Source: a virus
Direction: 5' to 3' (one strand)
DNA length: 21,684 nt
Virus record (IMG/VR): IMGVR_UViG_3300045988_103300
Location: 1-21,684 of that record
The notes under the pieces: model-generated
What the model was told of the DNA's origin: nothing
What the model saw: the letters and a program-made list of their open reading frames with translations, nothing else
The model's database searches: none
Shown: positions 2,917 to 21,684 of the stretch, piece after piece
How the letters are laid out: every line of letters begins with the position of its first letter
Numbering within the stretch: the first letter of the stretch is position 1
Position numbers and translations under genes: made by a program

Positions 2917-2962
2917 AATTTATAAAGTTTAATTGTTAATATTATGTCTTACTTTCATAGTA

Positions 2963-2994
2963 CAAATATACAACAAAAAATTCATATTTCCAAA
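2963..2994 (-). promoter_or_regulatory. Leftward Bacteroidota-type promoter candidate
   Basis: On the minus strand, TTTG (complement of 2991-2994), then 20 nt, then TATATTTG (complement of 2963-2970). This matches the Bacteroides consensus TTTG-N19-21-TAnnTTTG. It lies about 45 nt upstream of ATG 2916. Confidence 0.55.
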
Positions 2995-3052
2995 TATTTT
3001 ATGCATTTTTTCAAAAAAAATATTACTATTTGTATTTTTTAGTGCTAAAAAT

Positions 3053-3083
3053 TTTGTAGATTAAAAAATTATTCTTATATTTG
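3053..3083 (+). promoter_or_regulatory. Rightward Bacteroidota-type promoter candidate 1
   Basis: TTTG 3053-3056, 19 nt spacer, TATATTTG 3076-3083. Confidence 0.45.
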
Positions 3084-3132
3084 TGGTGTGATAATAAAAA
3101 TACAATTTTAAATAAAAATAATGCTTAAATTA

Positions 3133-3164
3133 TTTGGAGATTGAGAAAAATTGTTGTATATTTG
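3133..3164 (+). promoter_or_regulatory. Rightward Bacteroidota-type promoter candidate 2
   Basis: TTTG 3133-3136, 20 nt spacer, TATATTTG 3157-3164. The -7 region is identical over 20 nt to that of the leftward promoter. Confidence 0.5.
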
Positions 3165-3238
3165 TACTATCAAACTAAAACTACTTCCATATTGAAAATT
3201 GAGCTGGGATTAATTTCCAGTTTAATTTTAACCTTTAC

Positions 3239-3289
3239 TGTAACTTTTTTACTAATATTTTGTAGTAAGATAAATAAAAAAAGTTACAT
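3239..3289 (+). promoter_or_regulatory. Conserved 51-nt element, copy A (TGTAAC-N39-GTTACA)
   Basis: Sequence: tgtaacttttttactaatattttgtagtaagataaataaaaaaagttacat. It ends 33 nt upstream of the helicase-like ATG. 42 of 51 positions are identical, without gaps, to copy B at 21200-21250. The terminal arms are inverted repeats. Confidence 0.6.
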
Positions 3290-3322
3290 ATAAAATTTAT
3301 TAACTTATTAAAAATTACTATT

Positions 3323-5201: not shown

Positions 5202-5203
5202 TT

Positions 5204-5338
5204 ATGGATGATTTTTTATTTAAAAAGCTTGAAGAACTAGAATATAGAATAGTTCAATTAGAGAACCAAAACAAAGGGTTAGTTTGGGAAGAAGTAGAAG
5301 AAAAACCAGAGATTCCTAACGCAACATATATTGACTAA
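5204..5338 (+). CDS. Small hypothetical protein (44 aa)
   Basis: MDDFLFKKLEELEYRIVQLENQNKGLVWEEVEEKPEIPNATYID, TAA 5336-5338. It is tightly packed with the flanking small ORFs. Confidence 0.3.
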   Translation: MDDFLFKKLEELEYRIVQLENQNKGLVWEEVEEKPEIPNATYID

Positions 5339-5339
5339 T

Positions 5340-5480
5340 ATGAAGTACTTTACATATAAATTATGCTTAAATGGAGTAAATTACGTTTATGTAATTCCCG
5401 AAAATAGTAAATTCTTAGTAGATTTACAAACTGGAGAATTAATACCTAAAGATGAGAAATTATTTGAGATAATGGAATAA
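5340..5480 (+). CDS. Small hypothetical protein (46 aa)
   Basis: MKYFTYKLCLNGVNYVYVIPENSKFLVDLQTGELIPKDEKLFEIME, TAA 5478-5480, directly followed by a strong terminator. Confidence 0.3.
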   Translation: MKYFTYKLCLNGVNYVYVIPENSKFLVDLQTGELIPKDEKLFEIME

Positions 5481-5483
5481 ACA

Positions 5484-5517
5484 AAAAGGAGGGTTATTTG
5501 CCCTCCTTTTCTTTTTT
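5484..5517. terminator. Bidirectional rho-independent terminator between convergent units
   Basis: Perfect 10-bp stem: aaaaggaggg (5484-5493), loop ttatttg, ccctcctttt (5501-5510). It is followed by a T-run on the plus strand and preceded by an A-run (a T-run on the minus strand). It sits between the plus-strand stop at 5480 and the minus-strand stop at 5519. Confidence 0.85.
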
Positions 5518-5518
5518 A

Positions 5519-6088
5519 TTAAACATATCTTCACTTGAATCCTTTAGCTGTATTTGCTAATCCACCACATACTCTACTAATAGCTCCTCTATCAGTTCCT
5601 ACAGATTTGGCTGCTTCTGTGCAACTTTCATACTCTTGAATAAAATTACCATCTAAATCATACTGAGCTACTTTACGACATCTTTGTTTGTTATGAGCAT
5701 CTACTTTATCTCTTCAAGATTCTGGGCAATTATGTTTCTTTCCCTTATTAGAATTAGACAGTTTCTTCTTTCATTCAGAATTAAATTTGACTCCGTAATT
5801 GCCTCCTTCTCCTCCAGGTTTCAAATTTAAACACATAGGATCAGTGTCCCATTTATCTCCAATTAGTTTGTATTCTAATTTAGATAATTCATCTGCATTA
5901 GTGCAAGTTGCCAAAATAATCTTTTGGTATGCATTAGGGAATCTTTTGTAATAATTAGTAATAATCCTTCCTGATCCTTTATATGGATCTTTATTTATGT
6001 CTTTACCTCTATAAATCCTTTTCCCAATATAATACTTGCCTCTTAATGTACCTGCAGTTAAAATTATTTTATAACAATAGTAAAACAT
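5519..6088 (-). CDS. GIY-YIG homing endonuclease with three in-frame TGAs (189 aa)
   Basis: ORF-track 5771..6088 (YCYKI...GKYYIGK...YKGSG GIY-YIG core) stops at TGA 5771-5773. Read-through gives ...KFNSE-W-KKKLSNSNKGKKHNCPES-W-RDKVDAHNKQRCRKVAQYDLDGNFIQEYESCTEAAKSVGTDRGAISRVCGGLANTAKGFK-W-RYV, ending TAA 5519-5521. The extension has NUMOD3-like basic repeats and the classic ..GF.W.Y tail. TGAs are at 5771, 5714 and 5531. Confidence 0.85.
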
Positions 6089-6540
6089 TATATAATAGTA
6101 AATTTCTGTCGTCTTTGCATCCCGTCTTTATTCTTTAATCCCAAGTGTATTCAACTTGCTATACCATTCTTAGGCTTTTCATATATCAACTGGTCTCAAT
6201 TTAATTCTTCAATAGCTTCAGCAATCCAACTTTGGAATACTTTCATATTACCATTAATTGGAGATATATCTGCTGCATACCCTGTTAAATGAGCAGAAGT
6301 TGAAGATCCTCCTACTGCTTTATTAAGCTCCTTATTTCTAAAACCAGAGGAAATCCTGATGCCTGCGTTACCAAGCTGATTGTCATCACAATACTTTGCC
6401 CATCTCTCTCTTATTGGGTCTAAAAGCTTCTCGACCAACTCTATCAGGTGCTCTGTTATACTCTCATCTGGAGTGTTATCTATATGCTTAATTGAAGCAG
6501 TATCAGATCTTGTTAATTCTTCGAGTGTGAAATACTTCAT
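6088..6540 (-). CDS. Endolysin, Peptidase_M15 (zinc D-Ala-D-Ala carboxypeptidase-like) family, two in-frame TGAs (150 aa)
   Basis: ORF-track 6196..6540 carries SSGFRNKELNKAVGGSSTSAHLTGYAADI (SxGxR..N...GG...S.H..G.A.D, M15 metal/active-site pattern) and stops at TGA 6196-6198. Read-through gives ...IEELN-W-DQLIYEKPKNGIAS-W-IHLGLKNKDGMQRRQKFTII, ending TAA 6088-6090. This restores the family's C-terminal ..DQLI.e.....W(I/V)H.. block. Confidence 0.8.
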
Positions 6541-7786: not shown

Positions 7787-8476
7787 TTACTTACTCTTTT
7801 TATTGTTACTTGAAGGAAAATCATAAGCTCTTTGAAGAGGCCCCTCTCCAGGTTTAATGCTCCATCCTTTACCTCTTGCTCCACCAAGCCAAATATTGCA
7901 AGATGAGCTAGAGTAAAGATTGGGAAACATATCCTTTAATGGCTTATATGTATAAAGCTCAGGGAATTCGTTATAATATGTAATTATAAAGTCCTGTAAA
8001 CGAGTCTTAAAGAAATCCGCCTTATCTCTATAATACTTCTTAATTTGATTTACTTGACTTGCTTCAGCAGCAATATCTTTCTCATCATCAGTTCTCATAA
8101 CTCCAAAATTACCAAGCTTATAAGATATAGGAATTACTATCTCGCTAAGTACTTGATAAAGTAAATAAGGCTGAACATAATAGTCTAATAGCTCTTTATA
8201 TCTGTAGTTATCAGAATCATCAATAGAATCACTTGGAAGTGGCTCAGGAGGTTCTATTGGATGAACTGGAGTATGAGGATCAATCCAATTAATACATTTC
8301 TTTTGTAATGCTTCCAATAGCTTAGTACCAATAGTTGACTGAAGTTCTACATCTTGGGCACTTGTGATGGCTGCTTGTAAATATTTACCCGATATATTGT
8401 TATCTAATGTAGAATTTGACTTTATATAGTCTTCTGAAATAAGCAGTACATTTCTATAGTTAAGTTGTTCCATCAT
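7787..8476 (-). CDS. Possible head-tail connector (gp6-like) protein (229 aa)
   Basis: The N-terminal pattern ISEDYIKSNSTLDNNISGKYLQAAITSAQDVELQSTIGTKLLEAL resembles the start of gp6-like head-tail connector/DNA-packaging proteins. It is located after the portal. Weak assignment. Confidence 0.35.
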   Translation of the reverse strand: MMEQLNYRNVLLISEDYIKSNSTLDNNISGKYLQAAITSAQDVELQSTIGTKLLEALQKKCINWIDPHTPVHPIEPPEPLPSDSIDDSDNYRYKELLDYYVQPYLLYQVLSEIVIPISYKLGNFGVMRTDDEKDIAAEASQVNQIKKYYRDKADFFKTRLQDFIITYYNEFPELYTYKPLKDMFPNLYSSSSCNIWLGGARGKGWSIKPGEGPLQRAYDFPSSNNKKSK

Positions 8477-9068
8477 AAATAAATTTATTGTTTTTATAAG
8501 GTCTATTTTCTTTTAAAGCTAAATATAATCCAGAACGTTCTCCATTAACTGATTTAACAGCTTCTTTCATTGAATTATATCTTGCAATAAAATTCCCATT
8601 CATATCAAATCTTAATATAGGCTTAACTCTAGTAATTCGTCCTTTGGAAGCATTTCCAATTTTAATAAGTGTTTCCAAAGTATAGATTCCTTTCTTTCCT
8701 TTATTCCAGGGTGTTTTACCTTTTTTAGAATTTGACATTTTTGCTCTACTCTCATTAGAAAAAGAATACCCGTATGTACCTTCTCCTCCTGATGTTATAT
8801 TGTAACCATTTTCAGGAGTATTTGTTTTATATTTATGTATCAATATCCTTTCTAATGTCTTAGCACAAGCTTCTGGTAAATTATCTTTAATTATGATATG
8901 TTCAAATCCATCTCAGCTATATTTTTGTATCGCTTTATAAAAGTAAGCTTGAGTAGAGTATCCATATCCATTTTTTCACCTAGCTTGCACACTTTGTCCA
9001 GTAATGCCAAAATATAGCTTATTGTTATACTTATTTATATGGCAATAAACAGTATAATTATTCAACAT
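8460..9068 (-). CDS. GIY-YIG homing endonuclease with two in-frame TGAs (202 aa)
   Basis: ORF-track 8460..8843 begins on TTG and lacks the catalytic domain. Extending upstream through TGAs at 8913-8915 and 8976-8978 to ATG 9066-9068 gives MLNNYTVYCHINKYNNKLYFGITGQSVQAR-W-KNGYGYSTQAYFYKAIQKYS-W-DGFEHIIIKDNLPEACAKTLERILIHKYKT...GYNITSGGEG. This is a complete GIY-YIG domain followed by NUMOD3-like basic repeats. TAA 8460-8462. Confidence 0.85.
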
Positions 9069-10149
9069 TTTGTTTGCTATCTTCTTGTCCATTTGGAGTT
9101 AAGCTAAAAGGAGTTATAGTTATTGAACCTTTCATTCCAAATATCTTATCAAATGTATCTACTATTTCGACCTGAATTGGTCTAACTACTGTACGATTAT
9201 AAAGTTTAAAAGCTTCATTAAATTCTTGTTCGTTGAATCCACTTGAGTAGTTAAGGCCAAAAAGTACACTATTAGCTCTAAATGCGCAGAATATCTGTTC
9301 TCTTGTCCTATCAGATAAAGCACTATATTTCTCATCAAAATCATCAGAGTCTAAACGCTCAATAGTAGTCTTATTTGTTTCATCATCATTATATGAAATA
9401 AGAACTCTACCAGCATTTTGAAATCCTGAGAATTTCTCATTAATATTCATCTCAATCTCTTCTTTAACTTCGTCTGTAGGCTGTCCATTATTAAAGTTAA
9501 TGATAAGATTGCCCATAAATCCGTTATGAAGAGAATTTAGATGAAACTCATTAATATTCTTCTCAGTTTCGCAAGATAGGATAGCTGCACCATAAACAGG
9601 GACTGGATATACTTTTCTTGTTATATAGCCCTTATTATAAACAACACTTGTAGGATTATCATCTGAATAATTAAATTTTGGATATTTGATAGCTTTAATA
9701 GACCAAGCAGACCAATCATCGGCATAATAGAATACTTCATTCTTTTCATCAGAACGAATCTTCATAAAGTCAAGATGATATATTTCTGAAACTCTACCTA
9801 CCATATCTCTAATTATTTGTAAAGCATATCCTCCAAAAATCATCTTATCTTTAGATACTTTACGCATAATATCCATAATAGTCTCACCTTTCTTATTTAC
9901 AGTTACTTCAAATCCTGGTGCATTACATACAACATCATTACCAACAATAAAGTCAGCAGTCCCATTAATGATAGATTGAAGAGTAGCTACATTTAAGTAT
10001 AAATCCCATAGATATAATGGATAGCGATTATCTTCACCCCAAGAAATCCAATCAGAACCCCTTTTTCTCGATTCTACAGGAAGTACTAAATTTGACACTA
10101 CAACAGGATCAATTGCACTTAATTGTACTTTTGTTTTATTTTCGCTCAT
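9058..10149 (-). CDS. Portal protein (363 aa)
   Basis: ORF-track 9058..10206 starts on TTG; the likely start is ATG 10147-10149 (MSENKTKVQ...). Portal-family features: ..WISWGEDNRYPLYLWDLYLNVATLQSIINGTADFIVG.., ..MIFGGYALQII.., ..FLGLNYSSGFNEQEF.. All 5 Trp codons are TGG. Confidence 0.75.
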   Translation of the reverse strand: MSENKTKVQLSAIDPVVVSNLVLPVESRKRGSDWISWGEDNRYPLYLWDLYLNVATLQSIINGTADFIVGNDVVCNAPGFEVTVNKKGETIMDIMRKVSKDKMIFGGYALQIIRDMVGRVSEIYHLDFMKIRSDEKNEVFYYADDWSAWSIKAIKYPKFNYSDDNPTSVVYNKGYITRKVYPVPVYGAAILSCETEKNINEFHLNSLHNGFMGNLIINFNNGQPTDEVKEEIEMNINEKFSGFQNAGRVLISYNDDETNKTTIERLDSDDFDEKYSALSDRTREQIFCAFRANSVLFGLNYSSGFNEQEFNEAFKLYNRTVVRPIQVEIVDTFDKIFGMKGSITITPFSLTPNGQEDSKQNVE

Positions 10150-10635: not shown

Positions 10636-11607
10636 CTATGCAGAAGCTAATGTTCAGTTCTTAGATGTAGCTAAAGCTTTTTGTTCTTCTGTAAGAGCAT
10701 TATAAACTGCAGAATTAAATGTAATAGTTTGTGTAGAAATTCCAGTTAAATCTGACACTGCTTCTAGAACATTATCAACTGAACTAGACGTTAATGAAGG
10801 AAGATTAGCTAAAGTAAATGACTTACTTGTAACTACACCTCCGAATTCTGTTAATTCAGTTAGCCAGTATGAACTTCCAAATGTATAGCCAAAAGCTGTG
10901 GAGTTTAATGAATTATTAGGAGATATAGTTATTTTGCCTAAAGATTTTAATTTTTTACAATATGTAAACATCTGATTTGTTTGACCAGTACAGTTTGGAG
11001 CGTAAATATCTGGAATGGTTTCAATTGATCCACAATAATTGAAAATGCCAGAAAGAGAAGTTGCTATAGAAAAATCCATATTTGGTAAAGTAAGCAAACT
11101 ACTACATTTACTAAAAGTTTGAAAATATTGAGATAATTTTAAATTTGCATCTATTTCAACTAAATGTTGGCAGTTATAGAAAAGTTGACTACCTTGAGTA
11201 TGGGTACTATTTAATAATATTATTTTATGTATTGCATTACTGCTAGAAGTAGTATAAAACATATTATTCATATTTTTCCCTTGGCAATCAAATGTGAATT
11301 CATCATTTTCAGACCATTCACATCCGTAGAAAAAATCAGCATAAGAAGATTTATTTAGTATAAAATAATCCTCCAATTTTAATTCCCCACCATCTCTAAA
11401 TTGATGCATATTAGAATATCCTAATGATAATGGAATAATACTTAAATCAATTTTACCTCCACCTCCAGAAATCTGTCCTATCTTATCTGCATAGCTTCTA
11501 AAGGTATCTGAATCCGATACAGCAACACCTTTAGCTACAATAGCATCTTTAATGGCACTCTTAGTACCTTCAAGATACGTTAATTTATCAGAAATTGTAT
11601 TTGCCAT
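10636..11607 (-). CDS. BspA-type leucine-rich-repeat tail/receptor-binding protein, in-frame TGA (323 aa)
   Basis: ORF-track 10654..11607 stops at TGA 10654-10656. Read-through gives ...EEQKALATSKN-W-TLASA, TAG 10636-10638. The N-terminus (LTYLEGTKSAIKDAIVAKGVAVSDSDTFRSYADKIGQI) is typical of phage LRR fibre proteins. Repeats of the F..C..L type are present (FYGCEW.., FYNCQHLVEI, FSKCSSLLTL, FNYCGSIETI, FTYCKKLKSL). Confidence 0.7.
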
Positions 11608-11608
11608 A

Positions 11609-12130
11609 TTAGATATATTTAAATTTTACCCCTTTATAAGTGTCTGTTCTTCCTTTAAGACAATCTATAACTCTACTATGAGTATACCCATCTATTGATG
11701 TTTCAATTGCATTTTTATATGTTTTAACTAGTAAATCATTAATAAATAGCCCTACAGGTTTACTAATTTTATCAATACATCTATTTATTCTAGTTCCATA
11801 TGTATTATTATACTTTGCATCACATCATTCTAAATTTTCTACCCTATTATCTGTCTTATTTTCATTTATATGGTTAACATATGGTAGATTGTCAGGATTT
11901 GGAATAAATGCTTCTGCTACTAGTCTGTGAACTTTAATAGCTTTAGGTTTATCTAAGCCAGATACTAGAATTACATAATTATAGCCATATTTATCTATAT
12001 GCTGTTTTAGCTTTTTATGTATTTGTTTTCTGGTTCTTCCAATAGAATCTTTAAAAGTCAATGGGTTACTATATACATCTCCTGTAGAAGATACACTATA
12101 GTTAGGATAATTTGTTAATACTCTATTCAT
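11609..12130 (-). CDS. HNH homing endonuclease, in-frame TGA in the HNH core (173 aa)
   Basis: Likely start ATG 12128-12130 ([26 protein letters not shown]4-like). ORF-track 11825..12208 stops at TGA 11825-11827. Read-through gives ...[92 protein letters not shown] 11609-11611. NLEW is the conserved HNH_3 motif. Confidence 0.85.
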
Positions 12131-12737
12131 TTGGAATTTCACCATTAATTGTATCAAGAGTAGTTGAGATATTACCAATCTGAGCTTGAATTGCTGAGAT
12201 TTCTCCATCTAACTCTGTCATCTTTGTATTATATGCATCTGTAGTTACATAGCTTGATAATTCACTTTTATCTGCTTTAAGTGCAACTTCATCTTTAGTA
12301 GCTAATCCAGATACATCAGGAATCTTATTCTCTACAGCTGTAAGCTCTTCTTTAGTAGCAAAATCCTCAGTACTTGGAATATCTGCCTTGAGAGCATAGT
12401 TAGAAAGATCAATAGATAGATGTAAATCTTCACCCTCTCTATTAAATGACATAGGAGAGTTTACTTGAAATACTTCCATCTTAGATGTTTCTAATTCAGT
12501 AATATCATTCTTAATTGGCTCTAACTTAGGTTCAAGTATAACATCCAACTGAGAATTAATTTGCTCATCAATTATTTCAACAGCCTTATCTTCGGAAATG
12601 TAATTACCTTTAGGTTGAAATCTGGCATCTGCTTCAATCTTTGTATAAGAACCAACTGGAAGCTGAGCTGTCTCAATACCACATTTCTTACTAACATAGA
12701 AGGTCTGAGTATTCTTAGTATTCTTTAATATAATCAT
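12123..12737 (-). CDS. Tail-fibre-like protein, short paralogue (204 aa)
   Basis: ORF-track start 12764 is TTG; the first ATG is 12735-12737. TAG 12123-12125. It shares low-complexity fibre segments (..[48 protein letters not shown]..) with the central part of the 741-aa fibre. No Trp. Confidence 0.55.
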
Positions 12738-12967: not shown

Positions 12968-13810
12968 TTAGTATGTTACTGACCAGCCTTTACTGGTGAT
13001 TTGTGATTTTTGTTCCTCTGTTAATGAATTATATACAGTTTGATGAAATTTGATTATTAAATTTCTATCTGTAGTATATAATCCATCTATAACATTATCT
13101 ACTGACTGACTCGTTAATACTGGTAATTTTGATAACTTTAATATTTCTATGTTAGTGCTTTTCCCTATATTAGTAAACCCTCCTAAATCTGTCAAATAAG
13201 AAAAAGGCCCAGAAGCAAATATATTTTGGTAATCCTGTCACTTTTCTGCATTATATCTAGGAACAGATTCTAAAGCTATACATCCTCTAAACATATTTTC
13301 AACACTTATAGCATTATCCATATTTATATTAGGAGCATTTTTTAAAGATGAGCATCCGTCAAACATATTGTAAAAAGCTATAGCTGTTGTGCCATTAATA
13401 TCTGGTACAGATACTAATGATGAGCAGTTTTGAAATGTTTGCCCAAGATGTACAAAATTTGATAGTATATTGGGAACTATTTTTAAATTTGTACATCCAT
13501 AAAATAAACCATTTGCTGCTCCTTTATTTGCGTTTGGAAAATAGGTCATATCGGATACATCCTCAATAGAAGTGCTTTCGAATATACTATTATTACCTTT
13601 ATACCAACTATTTACTGTATTTGCATCACAATCAGTAATTTCAGTCTGTCCTGGAAATATATTATCTATAACTAATTGCTTAAATTCAGTACTTTTAAAT
13701 ACTATAGGGGAGCAAATATTACTAGGCCAGACTTTGGTACTGCCAACATAAATAGCAGTACCTTGTCTGTCACCTACATAAAATGTTTTTAAATCATCTC
13801 TAATATTCAT
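12968..13810 (-). CDS. BspA-type LRR tail/receptor-binding protein, fusion of two track ORFs across TGA (280 aa)
   Basis: ORF-track 13238..13810 ends at TGA 13238-13240. ORF-track 12968..13195 is in the same frame and begins on TTG. The joining sequence is ...RYNAEK-W-QDYQNIFASGPFSYLTDLGGF... The fused protein has the same architecture as the 323-aa paralogue: LRR units FYGCTNLKIV, FQNCSSLVSV, FDGCSSLKNA, FRGCIALESV, then a C-terminal LSKLPVLTSQSVDNVIDGL...LTEEQKSQITSKGW module. Confidence 0.75.
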
Positions 13811-16038: not shown

Positions 16039-16272
16039 TTATTCTATATGTTTAGGTTTTAAACTCATCTCTTTAAGTTCAAGGTATTCTTTATGCTGTT
16101 CCTCTGTAATTACCCTATAGACAGATAAATCTGCATTTAAAGGGCAGTACATTAGTGTTGAGGCTGTATAAAACTTGATATTATCTCCATCAGTATATTT
16201 AGTAACATAATATCCTTTATCAGTATATACCTTGATAAAAACGTCTGTTTGTGTTATATGTAAATGTTCCAT
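16039..16272 (-). CDS. Small protein, paralogue of 12745..12966 (77 aa)
   Basis: ATG 16270-16272 shares one base with the TAA of the 500-aa LRR gene. TAA 16039-16041. The motif ..MYCPLNADLSVYRVITEEQHKEY.. matches ..CICPLDCDLTHLREISLEQDRIY.. of the 73-aa protein. Confidence 0.55.
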   Translation of the reverse strand: MEHLHITQTDVFIKVYTDKGYYVTKYTDGDNIKFYTASTLMYCPLNADLSVYRVITEEQHKEYLELKEMSLKPKHIE

Positions 16273-17774
16273 TATGCAAGAATCCAGTTTTTATTAGTAG
16301 CTATTGCTTTCTGTTCATCTGCTAGTTTAGATAAATGAGACTCTCCTAATACTAATGTATATTGAGTATCTCCAGTTCTATCTTTAAGTGCATCTAAAAT
16401 AGATACTAATGAGTCTATAGTTAGAGCTTCAAGACCTAAACTAAAATCAAGATAATCAGCATCTAAAGTTCCAGTTAAAGTAATAGTAGTAAGATTTGGG
16501 CAATCACTAAAAATAGCTCCTCCCATAGTTAATCCAGAAAAGTTGGTAGTTACTGTTGTTAAACTTTGGCAACTTCCAAACATTCCTCCTGCAGATTGTA
16601 CTGAAGAAAGGTCTATATTCCAAGAACTTAAAGTAGTATTTTGGAACATACCATCTGCCTCAATTAGTGCAGGTAACTCTATATTCCAATTACCAATAGA
16701 AGTATTCCAGAACATCATTTTTCCATTAGATAAAACTGGCAACGAATAACCCCAATCTGTTCAACCTACTCTTAAACATTGACTAAACATTTCTTCTGCA
16801 TTAACTAATCTACTTGTATCAAGTATAGGATTTTCTAATAGACCACAATTAGAAAACATACCTCTTGCTTCAACTAATATAGCATTTAATGTTATAGACT
16901 TTAATTTATTACAGTTAGCAAACATATAATCGCCATTAGTCATTTTAGGTGTACTTGCAGTAAAAGAAGTTAAACCAGTAAATCCAAACATATTATTTCC
17001 AGATGTTAATTCTGGCATATCTATATTGAACGAGGTTAACGCACTATCTCCATTAAACATTCCAGCTCCATTCTGTAAATTAGGAAGCTCCTTAGTAAAG
17101 GATGTTAACTGAGGACAACTTTGTAATATTCCTTCTCCATTAGTTACATTAGTAAAATCGAAGCCTTCAGGAACTTCAGTAAACTCACTACCTTGTAGTT
17201 TAATTTTATTTGCTGCTACGTCAATACTTCCTCCAGTTGGCACATTAACAGTTACATCAATAAACTCCATATAATCATATCCATCTGCAGGATGAATCAT
17301 TGTAGTTCCATTCTCTGTAATAGTAACTTCTCTATGCTCCTCAATTGGAATCTCTACATCTACTTCAATACTTGATAAACCTTGATAGCCAGCATCAGGT
17401 TTAACTTCAGTCATTGATAGGTTTTTATCTATTGTTATATGTTTCTCTTGTAAAGTAGGAGTTGGTACTGGAACATTTATTTGTGCAGAAACCTTCTCCA
17501 TAACATCATAATCTGGATCAGGTAAAATATCTATTAATCCATTAGATGTAATTGCAATCTCTTTAGTAGATTGTACTGTGGGAACAACAACATCAACAGA
17601 TACATTTACTTTCGACATACCATCATAACCCTCATCTGGAGTTACAACGAACTCAGCATTCTGAGTATATTCTACAGATTTCTCCTGTAATTTACATTCT
17701 TGAGCAGCTAAAGCTTCAATATCTCTTGAAGTTGTATTCTTTGCTACTTCTGGTGTTGTATATTTAATAGCCAT
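16272..17774 (-). CDS. BspA-type LRR tail/receptor-binding protein, fusion of two track ORFs across TGA (500 aa)
   Basis: ORF-track 16761..17774 ends at TGA 16761-16763. ORF-track 16272..16742 is in the same frame and begins on TTG. Junction: ...MFSQCLRVG-W-TDWGYSLPVLSNGKMMFWNT..., in mid-LRR array. The N-terminus has four ~38-aa tandem repeats. There are LRR units on both sides of the TGA (MFANCNKLKSITL, MFSNCGLLENPIL | MFGSCQSLTTVT, IFSDCPNLTTITL) and a C-terminal ..LADEQKAIATNKNWILA module. Confidence 0.8.
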
Positions 17775-18420: not shown

Positions 18421-19326
18421 TTAGGCTTTGGCACCAAGAACTACCTCATCAGGGAATGCAACCTGTACGCCAGCGTTAAATTCAATAGCTAATCTAAATT
18501 CGCGGAAATCTTGTGAATACCACAATTCAAACTTCTCTTCATCGTTCATCATATCGCAACCATAGAAGAAGTTCTTATCTAACTGACCAGCAACAATCTT
18601 ATCAGTTCCATTAAGACCATTAACAGCGATTACTTTAACCTGCGAACCAGGAAGCATAATCTCACCATTAAGATTCTCACCACTATAGTGGTAGTAGTTC
18701 TTAGCAACTAACTCCTGGATAAATTTACGGAAAGTATCACTACCAACTAAGATAGAAGCACCATCCAGAACCTTCTCAGGAATAGCGTTATAAACAGCCA
18801 TAATGTCATCATAAGCAGATGCTCCAGTAATTACTACATCAACAACACCATCAGCAGCACCAAGGATCTTTAACAGACCATCAAAATACTTCAGGTTATT
18901 TGTTTCAGAAGCAGTATCACCCTGCCAAATAGCAGTCTCGATAGCAGCCTTAACGTTCTCAACTACTGCATTTACGAAATCCTCTTCAAAAGGAAGCGTC
19001 TTCTGACCAGCAGCTACTCGTACTTGATACTGAGTCCAGTATTTAAGCATCTCTTTATCACAATATGCCATATTGATCTTAATATTACCAGTAGCCAGAA
19101 TTCTCTGAGAAAGAGTCTGAGTTCCAGCTTCATTCCAACCACAAGCTAGGCCATCGCCAAACTGAATAGCAGTTGATAACAGGTTAAGAGCAGCACTAGT
19201 TTTGATGTCAGTTTGAAGATTGAACAACGAAGCACTCTTAGCCTTTAATACAGCCTCTTTAATAAGAGGAAGACGTCTCTGCTCTACATAAGCAGTAAGA
19301 CTAGTCATTACAGGACTATTTGCCAT
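18421..19326 (-). CDS. Major capsid protein, HK97 fold (301 aa)
   Basis: Position after protease and scaffold, size, and motifs typical of HK97-like MCPs (..AIWQGDT....YFDGLLKIL.., C-terminal ..EFNAGVQVAFPDEVV..). Less AT-rich than neighbouring genes. All 4 Trp codons are TGG. Confidence 0.75.
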   Translation of the reverse strand: MANSPVMTSLTAYVEQRRLPLIKEAVLKAKSASLFNLQTDIKTSAALNLLSTAIQFGDGLACGWNEAGTQTLSQRILATGNIKINMAYCDKEMLKYWTQYQVRVAAGQKTLPFEEDFVNAVVENVKAAIETAIWQGDTASETNNLKYFDGLLKILGAADGVVDVVITGASAYDDIMAVYNAIPEKVLDGASILVGSDTFRKFIQELVAKNYYHYSGENLNGEIMLPGSQVKVIAVNGLNGTDKIVAGQLDKNFFYGCDMMNDEEKFELWYSQDFREFRLAIEFNAGVQVAFPDEVVLGAKA

Positions 19327-19348: not shown

Positions 19349-19960
19349 TTAACCAATAAAGTTTTTAAGCTTTTTATCAATAACAGGATTACCAGTCATT
19401 ATTGAAGCTTTGCCTTCTATCTGTTCCTCAGCTGAAAATGCAGCACTCATTTTGCTCATCTTTTCAACCGTCTTTTCTGTAGCTTCAGATTTACCCTCTA
19501 ATTCAGCTACTTTCTTAACAAGCTTATCAACAATGTCATAAAGCTCATTAATTTCGCGATGAATTGCATCAATTGCATCAGTTACAGTTTCTTTATCTCC
19601 ATCAGTAGCTACTTCAGGATCAACTGGCTCTTCAGCAGTTTCTACCTTGCGTTTTCCACAAGCAGCATCAACTTCTGCTTTAGCTGCTTCTTCTGGATCA
19701 ACTTCAGCTTTTGGATCAGTAATGGACTCTACTTTACCGTCTTTAACAACAATAGTTTTGCCATCTTCGGTAACATACTCACCATCAGCAGCAGGTGCAT
19801 ATTCTCCAGTATCAGTATCCATTGTATATACACTCATACCTGCCCTTAGATCCTCATCCTCACTACCATCGTAAGTTAGAACTCCAGCACTAGTCTTAAC
19901 ATCGTTAAATTTTGCTAAGAGTTTACTAAGTTCGATTCTCAGTTTAGTTAATTTGTTCAT
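19349..19960 (-). CDS. Scaffolding protein (203 aa)
   Basis: A highly acidic, Ala/Glu/Lys-rich helical protein (..INELYDIVDKLVKKVAELEGKSEATEKTVEKMSKM..) directly upstream of the capsid gene. No Trp. Confidence 0.6.
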   Translation of the reverse strand: MNKLTKLRIELSKLLAKFNDVKTSAGVLTYDGSEDEDLRAGMSVYTMDTDTGEYAPAADGEYVTEDGKTIVVKDGKVESITDPKAEVDPEEAAKAEVDAACGKRKVETAEEPVDPEVATDGDKETVTDAIDAIHREINELYDIVDKLVKKVAELEGKSEATEKTVEKMSKMSAAFSAEEQIEGKASIMTGNPVIDKKLKNFIG

Positions 19961-20555
19961 ACTTAAATTTAAAATTTTTATGATAGTTTTGTTTATTTTT
20001 GCAACATTTTATAATAGCACTATGATCAAAATTTCCGTTTCTTTCAGCGTCCATAGCAGATTTCCAAGTGCATATATAAGTATCATTAATATCTGTCATA
20101 ATTATACGTTTACTTACTTTTTCTTTCTGCTGTTCAGTTTGTTTAGTTCCTAATCTACATTCTCTTAACTTTAATTTTGTTTCATCCTTTAATACTCTTC
20201 CAGACTGTTTTAAAGACATTTTGTGTTTAGATTCTTCACTGTGTTTAAATCCAGTATTAGAACCTCCACCTTCATTTAAATTATAACCATTATTTAATGT
20301 ATCAAATAACTGAATATATTTAATTTCTGCATTATTTAGTTGTCTTTTCAATAATTCTGTAGAAGAACAACAAAAGATTTGAAGAATTTCCCATTTAAAG
20401 TTATTGAATTCATATTTCCTAATCGCTCTATGAAAATATGTAAGATTAGAACTGTATTTATGTTCATTCTTTCTTCTCAAGAAATTATTTGTTTGTCCTA
20501 CATATTTATTGCCATTTATAAGATTTGTTGCTAGATATATAACTCCACTATACAT
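19944..20555 (-). CDS. GIY-YIG homing endonuclease (203 aa), no TGA
   Basis: GVIYLATNLINGNKYVGQT...RRKNEH...AIRKYEFNNFKWEIL...E..YI.....NGYNLNEGG is a complete GIY-YIG domain. It is followed by NUMOD3-like repeats (HSEESKHKMS, LKDETKLKLRE, QTEQQKEKVSK) and a C-terminal DNA-binding tail. It is inserted between the protease and scaffold genes, overlapping the scaffold start by 17 nt. Confidence 0.85.
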   Translation of the reverse strand: MYSGVIYLATNLINGNKYVGQTNNFLRRKNEHKYSSNLTYFHRAIRKYEFNNFKWEILQIFCCSSTELLKRQLNNAEIKYIQLFDTLNNGYNLNEGGGSNTGFKHSEESKHKMSLKQSGRVLKDETKLKLRECRLGTKQTEQQKEKVSKRIIMTDINDTYICTWKSAMDAERNGNFDHSAIIKCCKNKQNYHKNFKFKYEQIN

Positions 20556-20556
20556 T

Positions 20557-21147
20557 CTATTTAACTCTTTTTATCTTCTTAATCATATTAAGGATCTCTT
20601 TTATTTCGTCATATTCATCAGACTTTCTCTCTAAAGTAAATAAACCTTCAATTGAGAACCCTTTAAACTTACCAGCTTTAATTGCATCCCAAATAACTTG
20701 ATTATCTACTTTATAAGTGGCAAATAAAGAACCATCAGGAACATCCTGGAATTCAACTGGAGATATTCCTCTATTAATATCCTTTACATAGATTTCTTGT
20801 AGAGTAATTCCATTTAAATCAGAATCTTCTAAATGTTCAATATTTACATCTGTAGTTCTCTTATCATACAGCATCTTCTCTGCCATTTTACGAAGAGTTT
20901 CCTTATCATACTGTATGTAGTATTCTCCGAGTTTCTCATCTCGTCTGAAAATTGGAGTATCACTTAACATTAAGCAAGATGTTACTAAATGCTTATCTTC
21001 ATCCATCGAGAACTTCTGAGAATTACTAAAAGCAACCCAGTTAACTTGTGTAGCTGGTTTGCTTGTTAAAGCAACATATTCTATTCCATCACAATCATCA
21101 GTAATCACTGCCTGAAATAATGGAAGATCATTATAAGTAATTTCCAT
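20557..21147 (-). CDS. Prohead protease, XkdF-like (196 aa)
   Basis: The pattern ..YVALTSKPATQ... ...IFRRDEKLGEYYIQYDKETLRKMAEKM......DVNIEH.......G.TLQEIYV..........W....KV.N..IWDAIKAGKFKGFSIEG matches the XkdF-type putative serine protease domain. It lies upstream of the scaffold and capsid genes. TAG 20557-20559. Confidence 0.6.
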   Translation of the reverse strand: MEITYNDLPLFQAVITDDCDGIEYVALTSKPATQVNWVAFSNSQKFSMDEDKHLVTSCLMLSDTPIFRRDEKLGEYYIQYDKETLRKMAEKMLYDKRTTDVNIEHLEDSDLNGITLQEIYVKDINRGISPVEFQDVPDGSLFATYKVDNQVIWDAIKAGKFKGFSIEGLFTLERKSDEYDEIKEILNMIKKIKRVK

Positions 21148-21259: not shown

Positions 21260-21684
21260 CTAGAATGAAGCATTAGATTCAGTAACTGCTACCTTAGTTT
21301 GAGCTGAAGTAATATCAGATTCAACAACATAACATTTAATTGGATTGTTAAGTTGGTCTGTTTCTTTATCTCCAAGTAAGTTTCGAGTATATTCAACTGG
21401 AGCTGTATTTAAATTAGCTGGAGCAGATACTGATGCTGATACTCCTGAAGCAGATGCACCACTAGTTTCGTCTACTTCCCAGATCTTTTTAACATTAGCT
21501 ATACCAGCTGCAATTGCTGCAGCAGCGGCGGCAGCACCTAAAGCTGGACCAACAATTGGAATTCCTGCCATTGCAGAATAAGCACTGTTAGCTGCACTAT
21601 ATGTATCAATTAAAGCTTGAGCTGTTGCAAATCCTTTACCTACTTTACTTTCCTCTCCCCATATAGTTGCCATACTTCCTGCAA
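21260..21684 (-). CDS. C-terminal part of a Gly/Ala-rich virion protein (partial, open to window edge)
   Basis: The frame stays open upstream of the track ATG (21671-21673) to the window end. It has a hydrophobic Gly/Ala zipper (MAGIPIVGPALGAAAAAAAIAAGIA) of the kind seen in tape-measure or ejection proteins. TAG 21260-21262. Confidence 0.5.
   Translation of the reverse strand, partial: AGSMATIWGEESKVGKGFATAQALIDTYSAANSAYSAMAGIPIVGPALGAAAAAAAIAAGIANVKKIWEVDETSGASASGVSASVSAPANLNTAPVEYTRNLLGDKETDQLNNPIKCYVVESDITSAQTKVAVTESNASF

Follow-up and report, generated by a model that had tools for sequence, protein, structure and literature searches.

A predicted Bacteroidota-type control region in a TGA-recoded phage with a probable standard-code host

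Phages that reassign a stop codon in hosts of the standard genetic code have been described from the gut since 2014, and the phenomenon considered here is already known. Our subject is a stretch of 21,684 nt of IMG/VR virus record IMGVR_UViG_3300045988_103300 (positions 1 to 21,684), which we refer to as the window, and in particular its divergent intergenic region at positions 2917-3322, which carries three promoter-like motifs, named P1, P2 and P3. We are quite confident that this is a Bacteroidota-type control region in a TGA-recoded phage of about 31 kb, that the host of this phage is a member of the Bacteroidales that uses the standard code, and that TGA is suppressed in the infected cell. 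The interest of the case is somewhat raised by the tRNA-free genome, by a pattern of TGA use that may mark gated genes, and by an exchange of fibre genes with crAss-like phages; furthermore, host-type signals of transcription and of translation start would place a recoded phage in a standard-code phylum independently of spacer or prophage evidence.

The closest described control signals are the promoters of the primary sigma factor of Bacteroides, with the consensus -33 TTTG / -7 TAnnTTTG (PMC7366714). The motifs of the window share both boxes, the spacing of 19-21 nt and the upstream location with the promoters of Bacteroidota, and the window genes share with Bacteroidota genes a leader that lacks a Shine-Dalgarno sequence and is rich in A at -3 and around -13, an enrichment that has been reported for Bacteroidetes mRNAs (PMC7366714); the window sites differ in that they are predicted, lie in a phage, occur three within 200 nt, and include two that form a mirror pair.

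Among phages, the closest described group comprises gut phages that are recoded while their hosts use the standard code (Borges et al., bioRxiv 10.1101/2021.08.26.457843; PMC11210395): as in this group, the phage of the window is small, AT-rich, of gut origin and partially recoded, its lysis genes and many structural genes are recoded while a replication-type gene is not, recoding raises its coding density from about 79% to 90%, as in the genomes of UHGV that use translation table 4, and the degree of recoding varies among close relatives; most table-4 phages also have no detectable suppressor tRNA. A difference is that the phage of the window spares its capsid, scaffold and tail-tube-like genes and carries TGA in those of the terminase, tail tip, fibre and endolysin. 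The Garnet and Amethyst clades of recoded phages are small (~34 kb), with a Garnet prophage in Prevotella (Borges et al., bioRxiv 10.1101/2021.08.26.457843; PMC11210395); our phage is likened to the Garnet/Amethyst type, by description only, in its size and in the variable recoding among close relatives, but the representatives of Garnet, Amethyst and Topaz recode TAG, whereas TGA is recoded here.

The zeta group of crAss-like phages (the proposed Echekviridae, 155-177 kb, with opal or amber suppression; PMC12386605) likewise reads TGA as tryptophan, at ~31-33% GC, in phages of gut origin with predicted Bacteroidales hosts; in comparison, the phage of the window is five times smaller, its large terminase subunit (TerL) and portal are unrelated, and it has no tRNA block. 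The phages of Mycoplasma and Spiroplasma, native users of table 4, also combine TGA as tryptophan with a low GC content and need no suppressor tRNA, but in them TGA accounts for 80-95% of the tryptophan codons and occurs in nearly every gene, in contrast to the 22% of the window, where TGA is avoided in highly expressed genes and an endolysin against peptidoglycan is encoded. Judged by the portal protein, the closest cultured phages are Nonlabens phages P12024S/L and Bacteroides phage BS-TP3, where the homology extends over 83-90% of the length; these phages have Bacteroidota hosts, and the Nonlabens phages are of similar size (~35.7 kb), but the portal identity is only 23-26%, and the capsid of the window has no cultured match.

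Promoter-like motifs and translation starts

The pattern TTTGN{19,21}TANNTTTG (i.e. TTTG-N19-21-TAnnTTTG) has exactly three matches in the 21,684 nt of the window, all of them within the 406 nt of the divergent intergenic region, which has 17% GC and is located at a switch of the GC skew; the coordinates and strands that a sequence-only reading of the window had assigned to the three matches have proved exact (Table 1). The -7 box is TATATTTG in all three. P1 is oriented towards the operon of small genes, the first ATG of which is at 2916 on the minus strand, while P2 and P3 are oriented towards ATG 3323 on the plus strand.

In dinucleotide-preserving shuffles of the region alone, 0.031 matches are expected and none of 20,000 shuffles reaches three; in shuffles of the whole window, 0.61 matches are expected against the three seen. 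The -7 box TANNTTTG by itself shows no enrichment across the window (41 copies, against 33 expected), and therefore the signal consists of the paired boxes and their location. A scan of the region for promoters of the sigma-70 type has found eight where 11.4 are expected, i.e. fewer than by chance. The region had also been described as the only long intergenic region of the window, which is essentially correct: it is the longest gap, and the next one, at about 5202-5518, holds small open reading frames (ORFs) and a bidirectional terminator.

For the comparison of relatives, the sequence that precedes the helicase-like gene has been taken from 23 related loci, giving 18 distinct sequences with the window included. 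TTTGGA and TAnnTTTG of P3 are invariant in these 18 sequences, where they are separated by four unrelated spacers; most of the aligned relatives retain the boxes of P2, again with a differing spacer; P1 is found wherever the left flank is homologous, and is present in the window-type relatives L004, L007, L029, L043 and L046, but where the left flank is of another kind P1 is gone, with P2 and P3 retained. Conserved boxes combined with freely changing spacers are the pattern that promoters would be expected to leave in evolution. At the level of sequence, region 2917-3322 has every property of promoters of the Bacteroidota primary sigma factor, and we infer that it functions as such.

It is unlikely, though compatible in part with a promoter role, that the motif copies instead form the arms of an inverted repeat to which a regulator binds, or belong to a replication origin, and merely resemble the consensus. 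The low GC content and the skew switch of the region would suit this possibility, as would a 31-nt inverted repeat (arms 2946-2976 and 3151-3181, 90% complementary) that covers parts of P1 and P3 and reaches past the -7 box: the repeat mirrors the -7 box and ~17 nt of the presumed initially transcribed sequence of both, and TTGTTGTATATTTGTACTAT is exact on both of its arms (a 20-mer on both strands, where 0.02 are expected). Against it stand the conserved parts themselves, which coincide exactly with the -33 and -7 boxes, 19-21 nt apart, and leave the spacers free, the aim of each copy at the adjacent gene, the position of P2 outside the 31-nt repeat, and the loss of P1 with P2 and P3 kept where the left flank differs. 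A repressor could also bind operators that overlap the promoters, in which case both roles would be combined.

In the arrangement that we propose, region 2917-3322 would be a divergent early control region with three promoters read by the Bacteroidota primary sigma factor: P1 would fire leftward into the operon of the small genes and the terminase, while P2 and P3 would fire rightward into the helicase-like gene, with a conserved terminator-like hairpin after P3. This hairpin is located ~35 nt past the inferred start of P3 and ~100 nt ahead of the helicase-like ATG. In eight sequences, three of its six predicted pairs (3203-3221) show compensatory double changes and none is broken; in a second sequence type found among the relatives, GGCAGG...CCTGCC followed by ACTTTTT, the pairing is maintained, and in some relatives a small ORF is inserted between P3 and the hairpin. 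In the lineage of the window, P3 probably drives either a short leader transcript that is terminated or, under regulation, transcription that reads through into the helicase-like gene. The possibility that the loop of the hairpin is an anticodon loop has been ruled out by eye, as no UCA anticodon is present. The leader of the helicase-like gene also contains a perfect AT-rich inverted repeat of 12 nt (3239-3250 and 3277-3288, TGTAACTTTTTT and AAAAAAGTTACA); at the matching place the relatives have GTCAA...TTGAC, and the 12-nt repeat at 3239-3288 is absent from the RNAalifold prediction.

The translation starts point in the same direction as the promoter motifs. GGAG, GAGG or AGGA occurs within 4-18 nt upstream of only 2-3 of the 33 window starts, G is depleted upstream of the starts, and position -3 is occupied by A in 23 of 32 starts, as is position -13 in 20 of 32. 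The start context is taattattaaattatttataaaatt-ATG at the capsid-like gene and tattaacttattaaaaattactatt-ATG at the helicase-like gene; these had been quoted correctly in support of the claim that well-expressed genes lack a Shine-Dalgarno sequence, which is sustained by the counts. Control phages have been run through the same crude ORF and start pipeline as the window: a Shine-Dalgarno motif, A at -3 and the promoter motif are found, respectively, at 7%, 72% and 0.14/kb in the window, at 9%, 57% and 0.18/kb in Bacteroides phage B40-8, at 33%, 33% and 0/kb in Mycoplasma phage P1, at 31%, 44% and 0.06/kb in Mycoplasma phage MAV1, and at 44%, 44% and 0.04/kb in Clostridium phage phiCD119. The profile of the window is like that of B40-8 and unlike those of the two Mycoplasma phages and the Clostridium phage; together with the conservation of the boxes across drifting spacers, this bears out the view that the control signals are Bacteroidota-like. 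Starts without a Shine-Dalgarno sequence and with A at -3 would suit the translation of Bacteroidota.

TGA as a tryptophan codon

When the window is read in table 4, all of its genes end in TAA or TAG and none in TGA, and its coding density rises from 0.79 to 0.90. There are 17 in-frame TGA codons, distributed over 13 of the 34 window genes, compared with 59 TGG codons, so that TGA amounts to 22% of the tryptophan codons. At the TGA sites of the window, the relatives have TGA 376 times, TGG 84 times and a codon for Phe or Tyr 72 times; at its TGG sites, they have TGG 1663 times and TGA 326 times. This interchange of TGA and TGG among the relatives and the absence of TGA stops show that TGA is read as tryptophan in the phage, confirming what the sequence-only reading had proposed for the phage's own code. 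The base that follows an in-frame TGA, compared with the base that follows TGG, reveals no bias of the readthrough type.

Individual sites are in agreement with this assignment. The TGA codon of an HNH_3 endonuclease (11825-11827) lies in a stretch ...NLEW..., which we take to be a conserved signature of HNH_3 endonucleases, and the relatives have TGA 32 times, TGG 17 times and TAC five times at this place; further sites that suit tryptophan occur in the C-terminal G-F-x-W-x-Y of a GIY-YIG enzyme and in the ...KNW(T/I)LA ends of paralogous leucine-rich repeat (LRR) proteins. The endolysin gene (6088-6540) has two in-frame TGA codons, at 6196-6198 and 6151-6153. For annotation, it follows that the family must be called in table 4, as table 11 loses a fifth of the coding sequence.

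A relative that is covered end to end has 31,122 bp and 36 genes, is 93% coding in table 4, and contains 33 TGA against 79 TGG codons, with 20 of the 36 genes recoded. The extent of recoding has been reported as 26-71% in recoded phages of standard-code hosts, against 90% in phages that use the code natively (Borges et al., bioRxiv 10.1101/2021.08.26.457843), and the partial recoding of the window phage is within the range reported for the former.

The use of TGA is specific to the gene, as is seen when the window genes are compared with those of loci L001-L103. The ratio of TGA to TGG is 1:95 in the helicase-like gene (21 distinct orthologs), 1:172 in the capsid gene (43 distinct orthologs), 1:96 in the tail-tube-like gene, 0:25 in the scaffold gene and 0:29 in the holin-like gene. 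The share of TGA among the tryptophan codons is 0.47 in the terminase gene, where TGA is present in 34 of 34 orthologs, 0.42 in the endolysin gene (26 of 27 orthologs), 0.31 and 0.41 in the large tail proteins, 0.79 in one LRR protein, 0.96 in the fibre and 0.6-0.7 in the homing endonucleases, which are among the most TGA-rich genes. This gene-by-gene pattern is an unusual feature of the phage. In total, TGA serves as tryptophan in ~40-55% of the genes, including those of the terminase, distal tail, fibre, endolysin and homing endonucleases, while the helicase-like, capsid, scaffold and major tail-tube-like genes stay free of TGA and readable in the standard code.

Our own reading of the pattern, in the spirit of the lysis-timing model for recoding of Borges et al. 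(bioRxiv 10.1101/2021.08.26.457843), is that the decoding of TGA may depend on conditions in the infected cell or carry a cost there, and may thereby gate packaging, tail completion and lysis. The relatives differ widely in their use of TGA: in L029 and L033 it is roughly as frequent as TGG, while in L086 (IMGVR_UViG_3300029905_000019) and L105 (JAXKHT010000109.1), both at ~28-30% GC, TGA is lacking altogether, within the reading frames as well as among the stop codons (0 of 22 and 0 of 10), which looks like an "unassigned codon" stage. The family lends itself to tests of how phages that have no detectable suppressor tRNA get TGA read: its members span 0% to ~50% TGA use, and the gene pattern indicates the functions that would be gated, i.e. 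terminase, tail tip, fibre and endolysin, as distinct from capsid and helicase-like protein.

Host and supply of the decoding agent

Our search for relatives is concerned with three proteins of the window phage. The portal, compared by tblastn with 50,697 phage records, matches only Nonlabens and Bacteroides phages and one unassigned faecal contig; the capsid has no match in the same 50,697 records; the terminase has 847 matches at 24-28% identity, among phages of many different host phyla, and is therefore uninformative on the host. The check that had been suggested for these three proteins thus leads to Bacteroidota phages through the portal only. A megablast of the whole window against the 50,697 records has no match either.

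In a scan of GTDB with one genome per species, five relatives have been found, two of which are on contigs that exceed the size of the phage, both from Bacteroidota: a 5.18-Mb Chitinophagaceae contig has a syntenic protease-capsid-portal module beside hutH/hutU, with the host genes that flank this prophage relative intact in table 11, and an 84-kb Bacteroidales contig has a protease-capsid-portal module beside a polysaccharide flippase.

A further tie with Bacteroidota is provided by the fibre gene. A 148.6-kb IMG/VR contig (IMGVR_UViG_3300045988_175865; L104, L116, L067) has a member of the small family at its end and a different phage upstream of the fibre gene; we have rejected its interpretation as a prophage in host DNA, as the small phage is here connected, via the shared fibre gene, with a crAss-like phage, and the contig contains no host DNA. 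The large phage occurs on contigs of 85-171 kb that have no Shine-Dalgarno motifs and about twice as many TGA as TGG codons, and whose coding density increases from ~0.5 to 0.94 on recoding; their TerL matches only Crassvirales and other Bacteroidota phages, and they are placed in the zeta group on size, GC content and recoding only. Genuine family contigs of 27-31 kb (e.g. L072) share up to 2,256 nt of the fibre gene with the large contigs at 92-98% identity, so that the shared segment is not merely an artefact of assembly, and an exchange as recent as this implies a common host. The predicted hosts of zeta-group phages are mostly Bacteroidales (Parabacteroides, Bacteroides, Prevotella, Phocaeicola; PMC12386605).

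Given promoters of the Bacteroidota type and starts that have A at -3 and no Shine-Dalgarno sequence, the host is most likely a gut member of the Bacteroidales that uses the standard code; the phylum and the code of the host are both inferred. Four sets of observations weigh against this reading. Firstly, ARAGORN has found no tRNA, and hence no tRNA-Trp(UCA), in the window and ~120 family loci, including the fully covered genome of 31,122 bp, and in the 36-gene inventory of the complete relative, some of whose ORFs were scanned against Pfam, there is no unassigned ORF of a size suited to a release factor or a tryptophanyl-tRNA synthetase (TrpRS); a standard-code host combined with the lack of a phage-encoded agent leaves the decoding of TGA unexplained. 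Secondly, TGA is present in genes 721-1047, 1041-1286 and 2049-2486 of the P1 operon, and therefore there is no clean split between early and late genes. Thirdly, the two closest GTDB matches are phage-sized contigs in genomes of Firmicutes assembled from metagenomes (MAGs). Lastly, the lineage itself has no CRISPR-spacer, Hi-C or close-prophage tie to a named host.

As regards the decoding agent, the sequence-only reading had argued that the phage would have to override the termination of its host at TGA. If the host terminates at TGA, as its probable place among the Bacteroidota suggests, the phage needs suppression; this part of the argument is supported by the code of the phage and by the probable code of the host, while no agent of the override is visible, and the genes that had been proposed as its signature in a full genome, i.e. 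tRNA-Trp(UCA), a release factor or a synthetase, are missing from the complete relatives. Rfam has no tRNA-like match either at the gathering threshold or at E<=5; its weak matches (sraA at 5476-5574, over the terminator at 5484-5510, and a microRNA family) have been treated as chance. The absence of a suppressor tRNA is not unusual for this class of recoded phages, where such a tRNA is a common but not a defining feature: a suppressor tRNA is detectable in only 35% and 15% of table-4 phages in two surveys (Borges et al., bioRxiv 10.1101/2021.08.26.457843; PMC11210395). The present case sharpens the question of how such phages have TGA read, and, since the genome is small (31 kb, ~36 genes), the search space for a decoding factor is small.

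We propose that TGA would be suppressed in the infected cell by an agent that is not encoded as a recognisable tRNA; in our reading, its source may be an undetected phage factor, a suppressor of the host strain, or a co-infecting crAss-like phage that bears a suppressor. A more specific and rather doubtful version is that the phage borrows the machinery of the code change, receiving the suppressor in trans as a "translational satellite" of another phage's code switch. The most likely source in trans would be co-infection of the same Bacteroidales host by a crAss-like phage with TGA recoding, a type of phage that has demonstrably exchanged fibre genes with the family, and the alternative source would be a suppressor tRNA of the host strain; if this were the case, a productive burst would need an opal suppressor supplied in trans. 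MT835470 (117 kb), the nearest GenBank relative of the large phage, has the standard code and no tRNA, and is thus uninformative on the supply of the suppressor.

A host among the Firmicutes (Lachnospiraceae or Oscillospirales) is what the bins of the closest GTDB matches would suggest, with L105 (53% portal identity, 6.7-kb contig) in an Acutalibacteraceae MAG and L106 (48%, 29.8-kb contig) in a Lachnospiraceae MAG; in addition, Borges et al. (bioRxiv 10.1101/2021.08.26.457843) write of Jade phages that recode "infected Firmicutes cells", and one opal-suppressing zeta crAss-like phage is predicted to infect Holdemanella (PMC12386605). We consider such a host quite unlikely: both contigs are phage-sized, and their link with Firmicutes is therefore one of binning only; the Shine-Dalgarno frequency of the window, by crude start calls, is near that of the Bacteroides phage and far from that of the Clostridium phage, and none of the nine starts of L105 has such a motif; the chromosomally integrated relatives are in Bacteroidota only; and the partner in the fibre exchange is crAss-like. 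L105 and L106, which are part of species-representative MAGs of GTDB, are probably mis-binned and could mislead tools for host prediction.

The Bacteroidota signals and the missing decoding machinery of the phage would be reconciled, with no conflict of codes and no need for an override, by an unrecognised Bacteroidota lineage that decodes UGA as tryptophan or terminates poorly at UGA, and the relatives L086 and L105, free of TGA both in frame and at stops, would fit with hosts in which TGA is ambiguous. However, a Codetta survey of 42,109 genomes has reported UGA as tryptophan in Mycoplasmatales, in several endosymbionts of insects and protists and in one family of Patescibacteriota, and in no Bacteroidota (PMC13092985); at 30% GC, TGA should dominate in such a phage, yet the capsid genes have one TGA against 172 TGG; and the Chitinophagaceae genes that flank the prophage relative are intact in table 11. 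This explanation is very unlikely.

A mollicute host (Mycoplasmatales) that natively reads TGA as tryptophan, and whose code the phage would share, had been retained by the sequence-only reading as the alternative, and would be in keeping with the lack of a suppressor tRNA, release factor and TrpRS, with the low GC content (30%), with the match of a tail protein to DUF285, a Pfam name that refers to Mycoplasma, and with the fact that Mycoplasma or Spiroplasma is the host of 22 of 27 cultured phages that use table 4 (PMC11210395). It is very unlikely: TGA makes up 95% and 80% of the tryptophan codons in Mycoplasma phages P1 and MAV1, where 9 of 9 and 14 of 16 genes contain it, compared with 22% in the window at similar GC content, whose capsid, tail-tube-like and helicase-like genes are nearly free of TGA, as some relatives are throughout; the M15 endolysin and the lysis cassette are aimed at peptidoglycan, which mollicutes do not have; no mollicute phage is among the matches listed for the structural proteins, i.e. 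in the portal, capsid and terminase searches, or in the GTDB scan; the promoter and start-site signals are of the Bacteroidota type; and the prophage relatives are in Bacteroidales and Chitinophagaceae.

Gene content of the window

The window has a GC content of 30% and contains the structural and lysis modules of a tailed phage, with nearly all genes on the minus strand (Table 1). The relatives of the family in IMG/VR are 28-33 kb long with differing assembly end points, from which a genome size of ~31 kb follows; the terminase, two large tail proteins and the remainder of the tape measure are located beyond the edges of the window.

Table 1. Positions of the features of the window that are referred to in the text
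Feature	Position	Strand	Remarks
First gene of the leftward operon, 59 aa	2737-2916	-	TGA-free
P1, predicted promoter	2963-2994	-	-33 TTTG 2991-2994; -7 TATATTTG 2963-2970; spacer 20 nt
P2, predicted promoter	3053-3083	+	-33 TTTG 3053-3056; -7 TATATTTG 3076-3083; spacer 19 nt
P3, predicted promoter	3133-3164	+	-33 TTTG(GA) 3133-3136; -7 TATATTTG 3157-3164; spacer 20 nt
Terminator-like hairpin and T-rich run	3203-3229	+	6 bp, 3203-3208 / 3216-3221
Helicase-like P-loop/DEYH protein, 572 aa	3323-5041	+	Motifs read from sequence
Bidirectional intrinsic terminator	5484-5510		11-bp stem, T-runs on both sides; between rightward unit and leftward late genes
Endolysin, Peptidase_M15_3	6088-6540	-	Pfam E=6.5e-14; phrog_894 endolysin E=4.4e-29
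Membrane protein, 53 aa	6540-6701		Adjoins M15 endolysin gene
Portal protein	9058-10149	-	Marker for finding relatives
HNH_3/NUMOD4 homing endonuclease	11609-12208	-	In-frame TGA 11825-11827
Major-capsid-like protein	18421-19326	-	No Shine-Dalgarno motif, no TGA
Protease-like protein	20557-21147
Tape-measure protein, C-terminus	21260-21673
Fibre, 741 aa	Within window

The helicase-like gene is the sole sizeable plus-strand gene of the window, followed by small ORFs and then by the bidirectional terminator; its product has no Pfam or PHROG match, and its name is based on sequence motifs alone. Five free-standing genes of homing endonucleases (1571-2062, 5519-6088, 8460-9092, 11609-12208 and 19944-20555), two of the HNH_3/NUMOD4 and three of the GIY-YIG/NUMOD type, break up the structural and lysis modules of this 31-kb phage.

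In the leftward operon, the minus-strand ORFs 1270-1578 and 1041-1286 are small and overlap, and the helix-turn-helix (HTH) of 1041-1286 is located downstream of an in-frame TGA. We have considered whether the two constitute a split phage sigma factor or late-gene activator and have found this unsupported: 1041-1286 matches HTH_50 above the cut-off and Sigma70_r4_2 slightly below it, 1270-1578 has no match, and thus there is an HTH only, with no match to region 2.

The presence of BspA-type LRR tail proteins had been mentioned as a further Bacteroidota trait. The LRR matches are real, with LRR_5 (BspA-type) in both of the tail proteins 10636-11607 and 16272-17774 and DUF285 in one of them (Pfam), but they carry little taxonomic weight, because LRR proteins also match DUF285, a family named for Mycoplasma. 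These two genes and 12968-13810, all on the minus strand, look paralogous, 12968-13810 being judged by likeness alone; they have in common a C-terminal module that ends in ...TEEQK...(T/S/N)K(N/G)W..., the tryptophan of which is encoded by TGA in one paralogue and by TGG in two, and a fourth copy of the LRR-type paralogue occurs in the genome of one relative.

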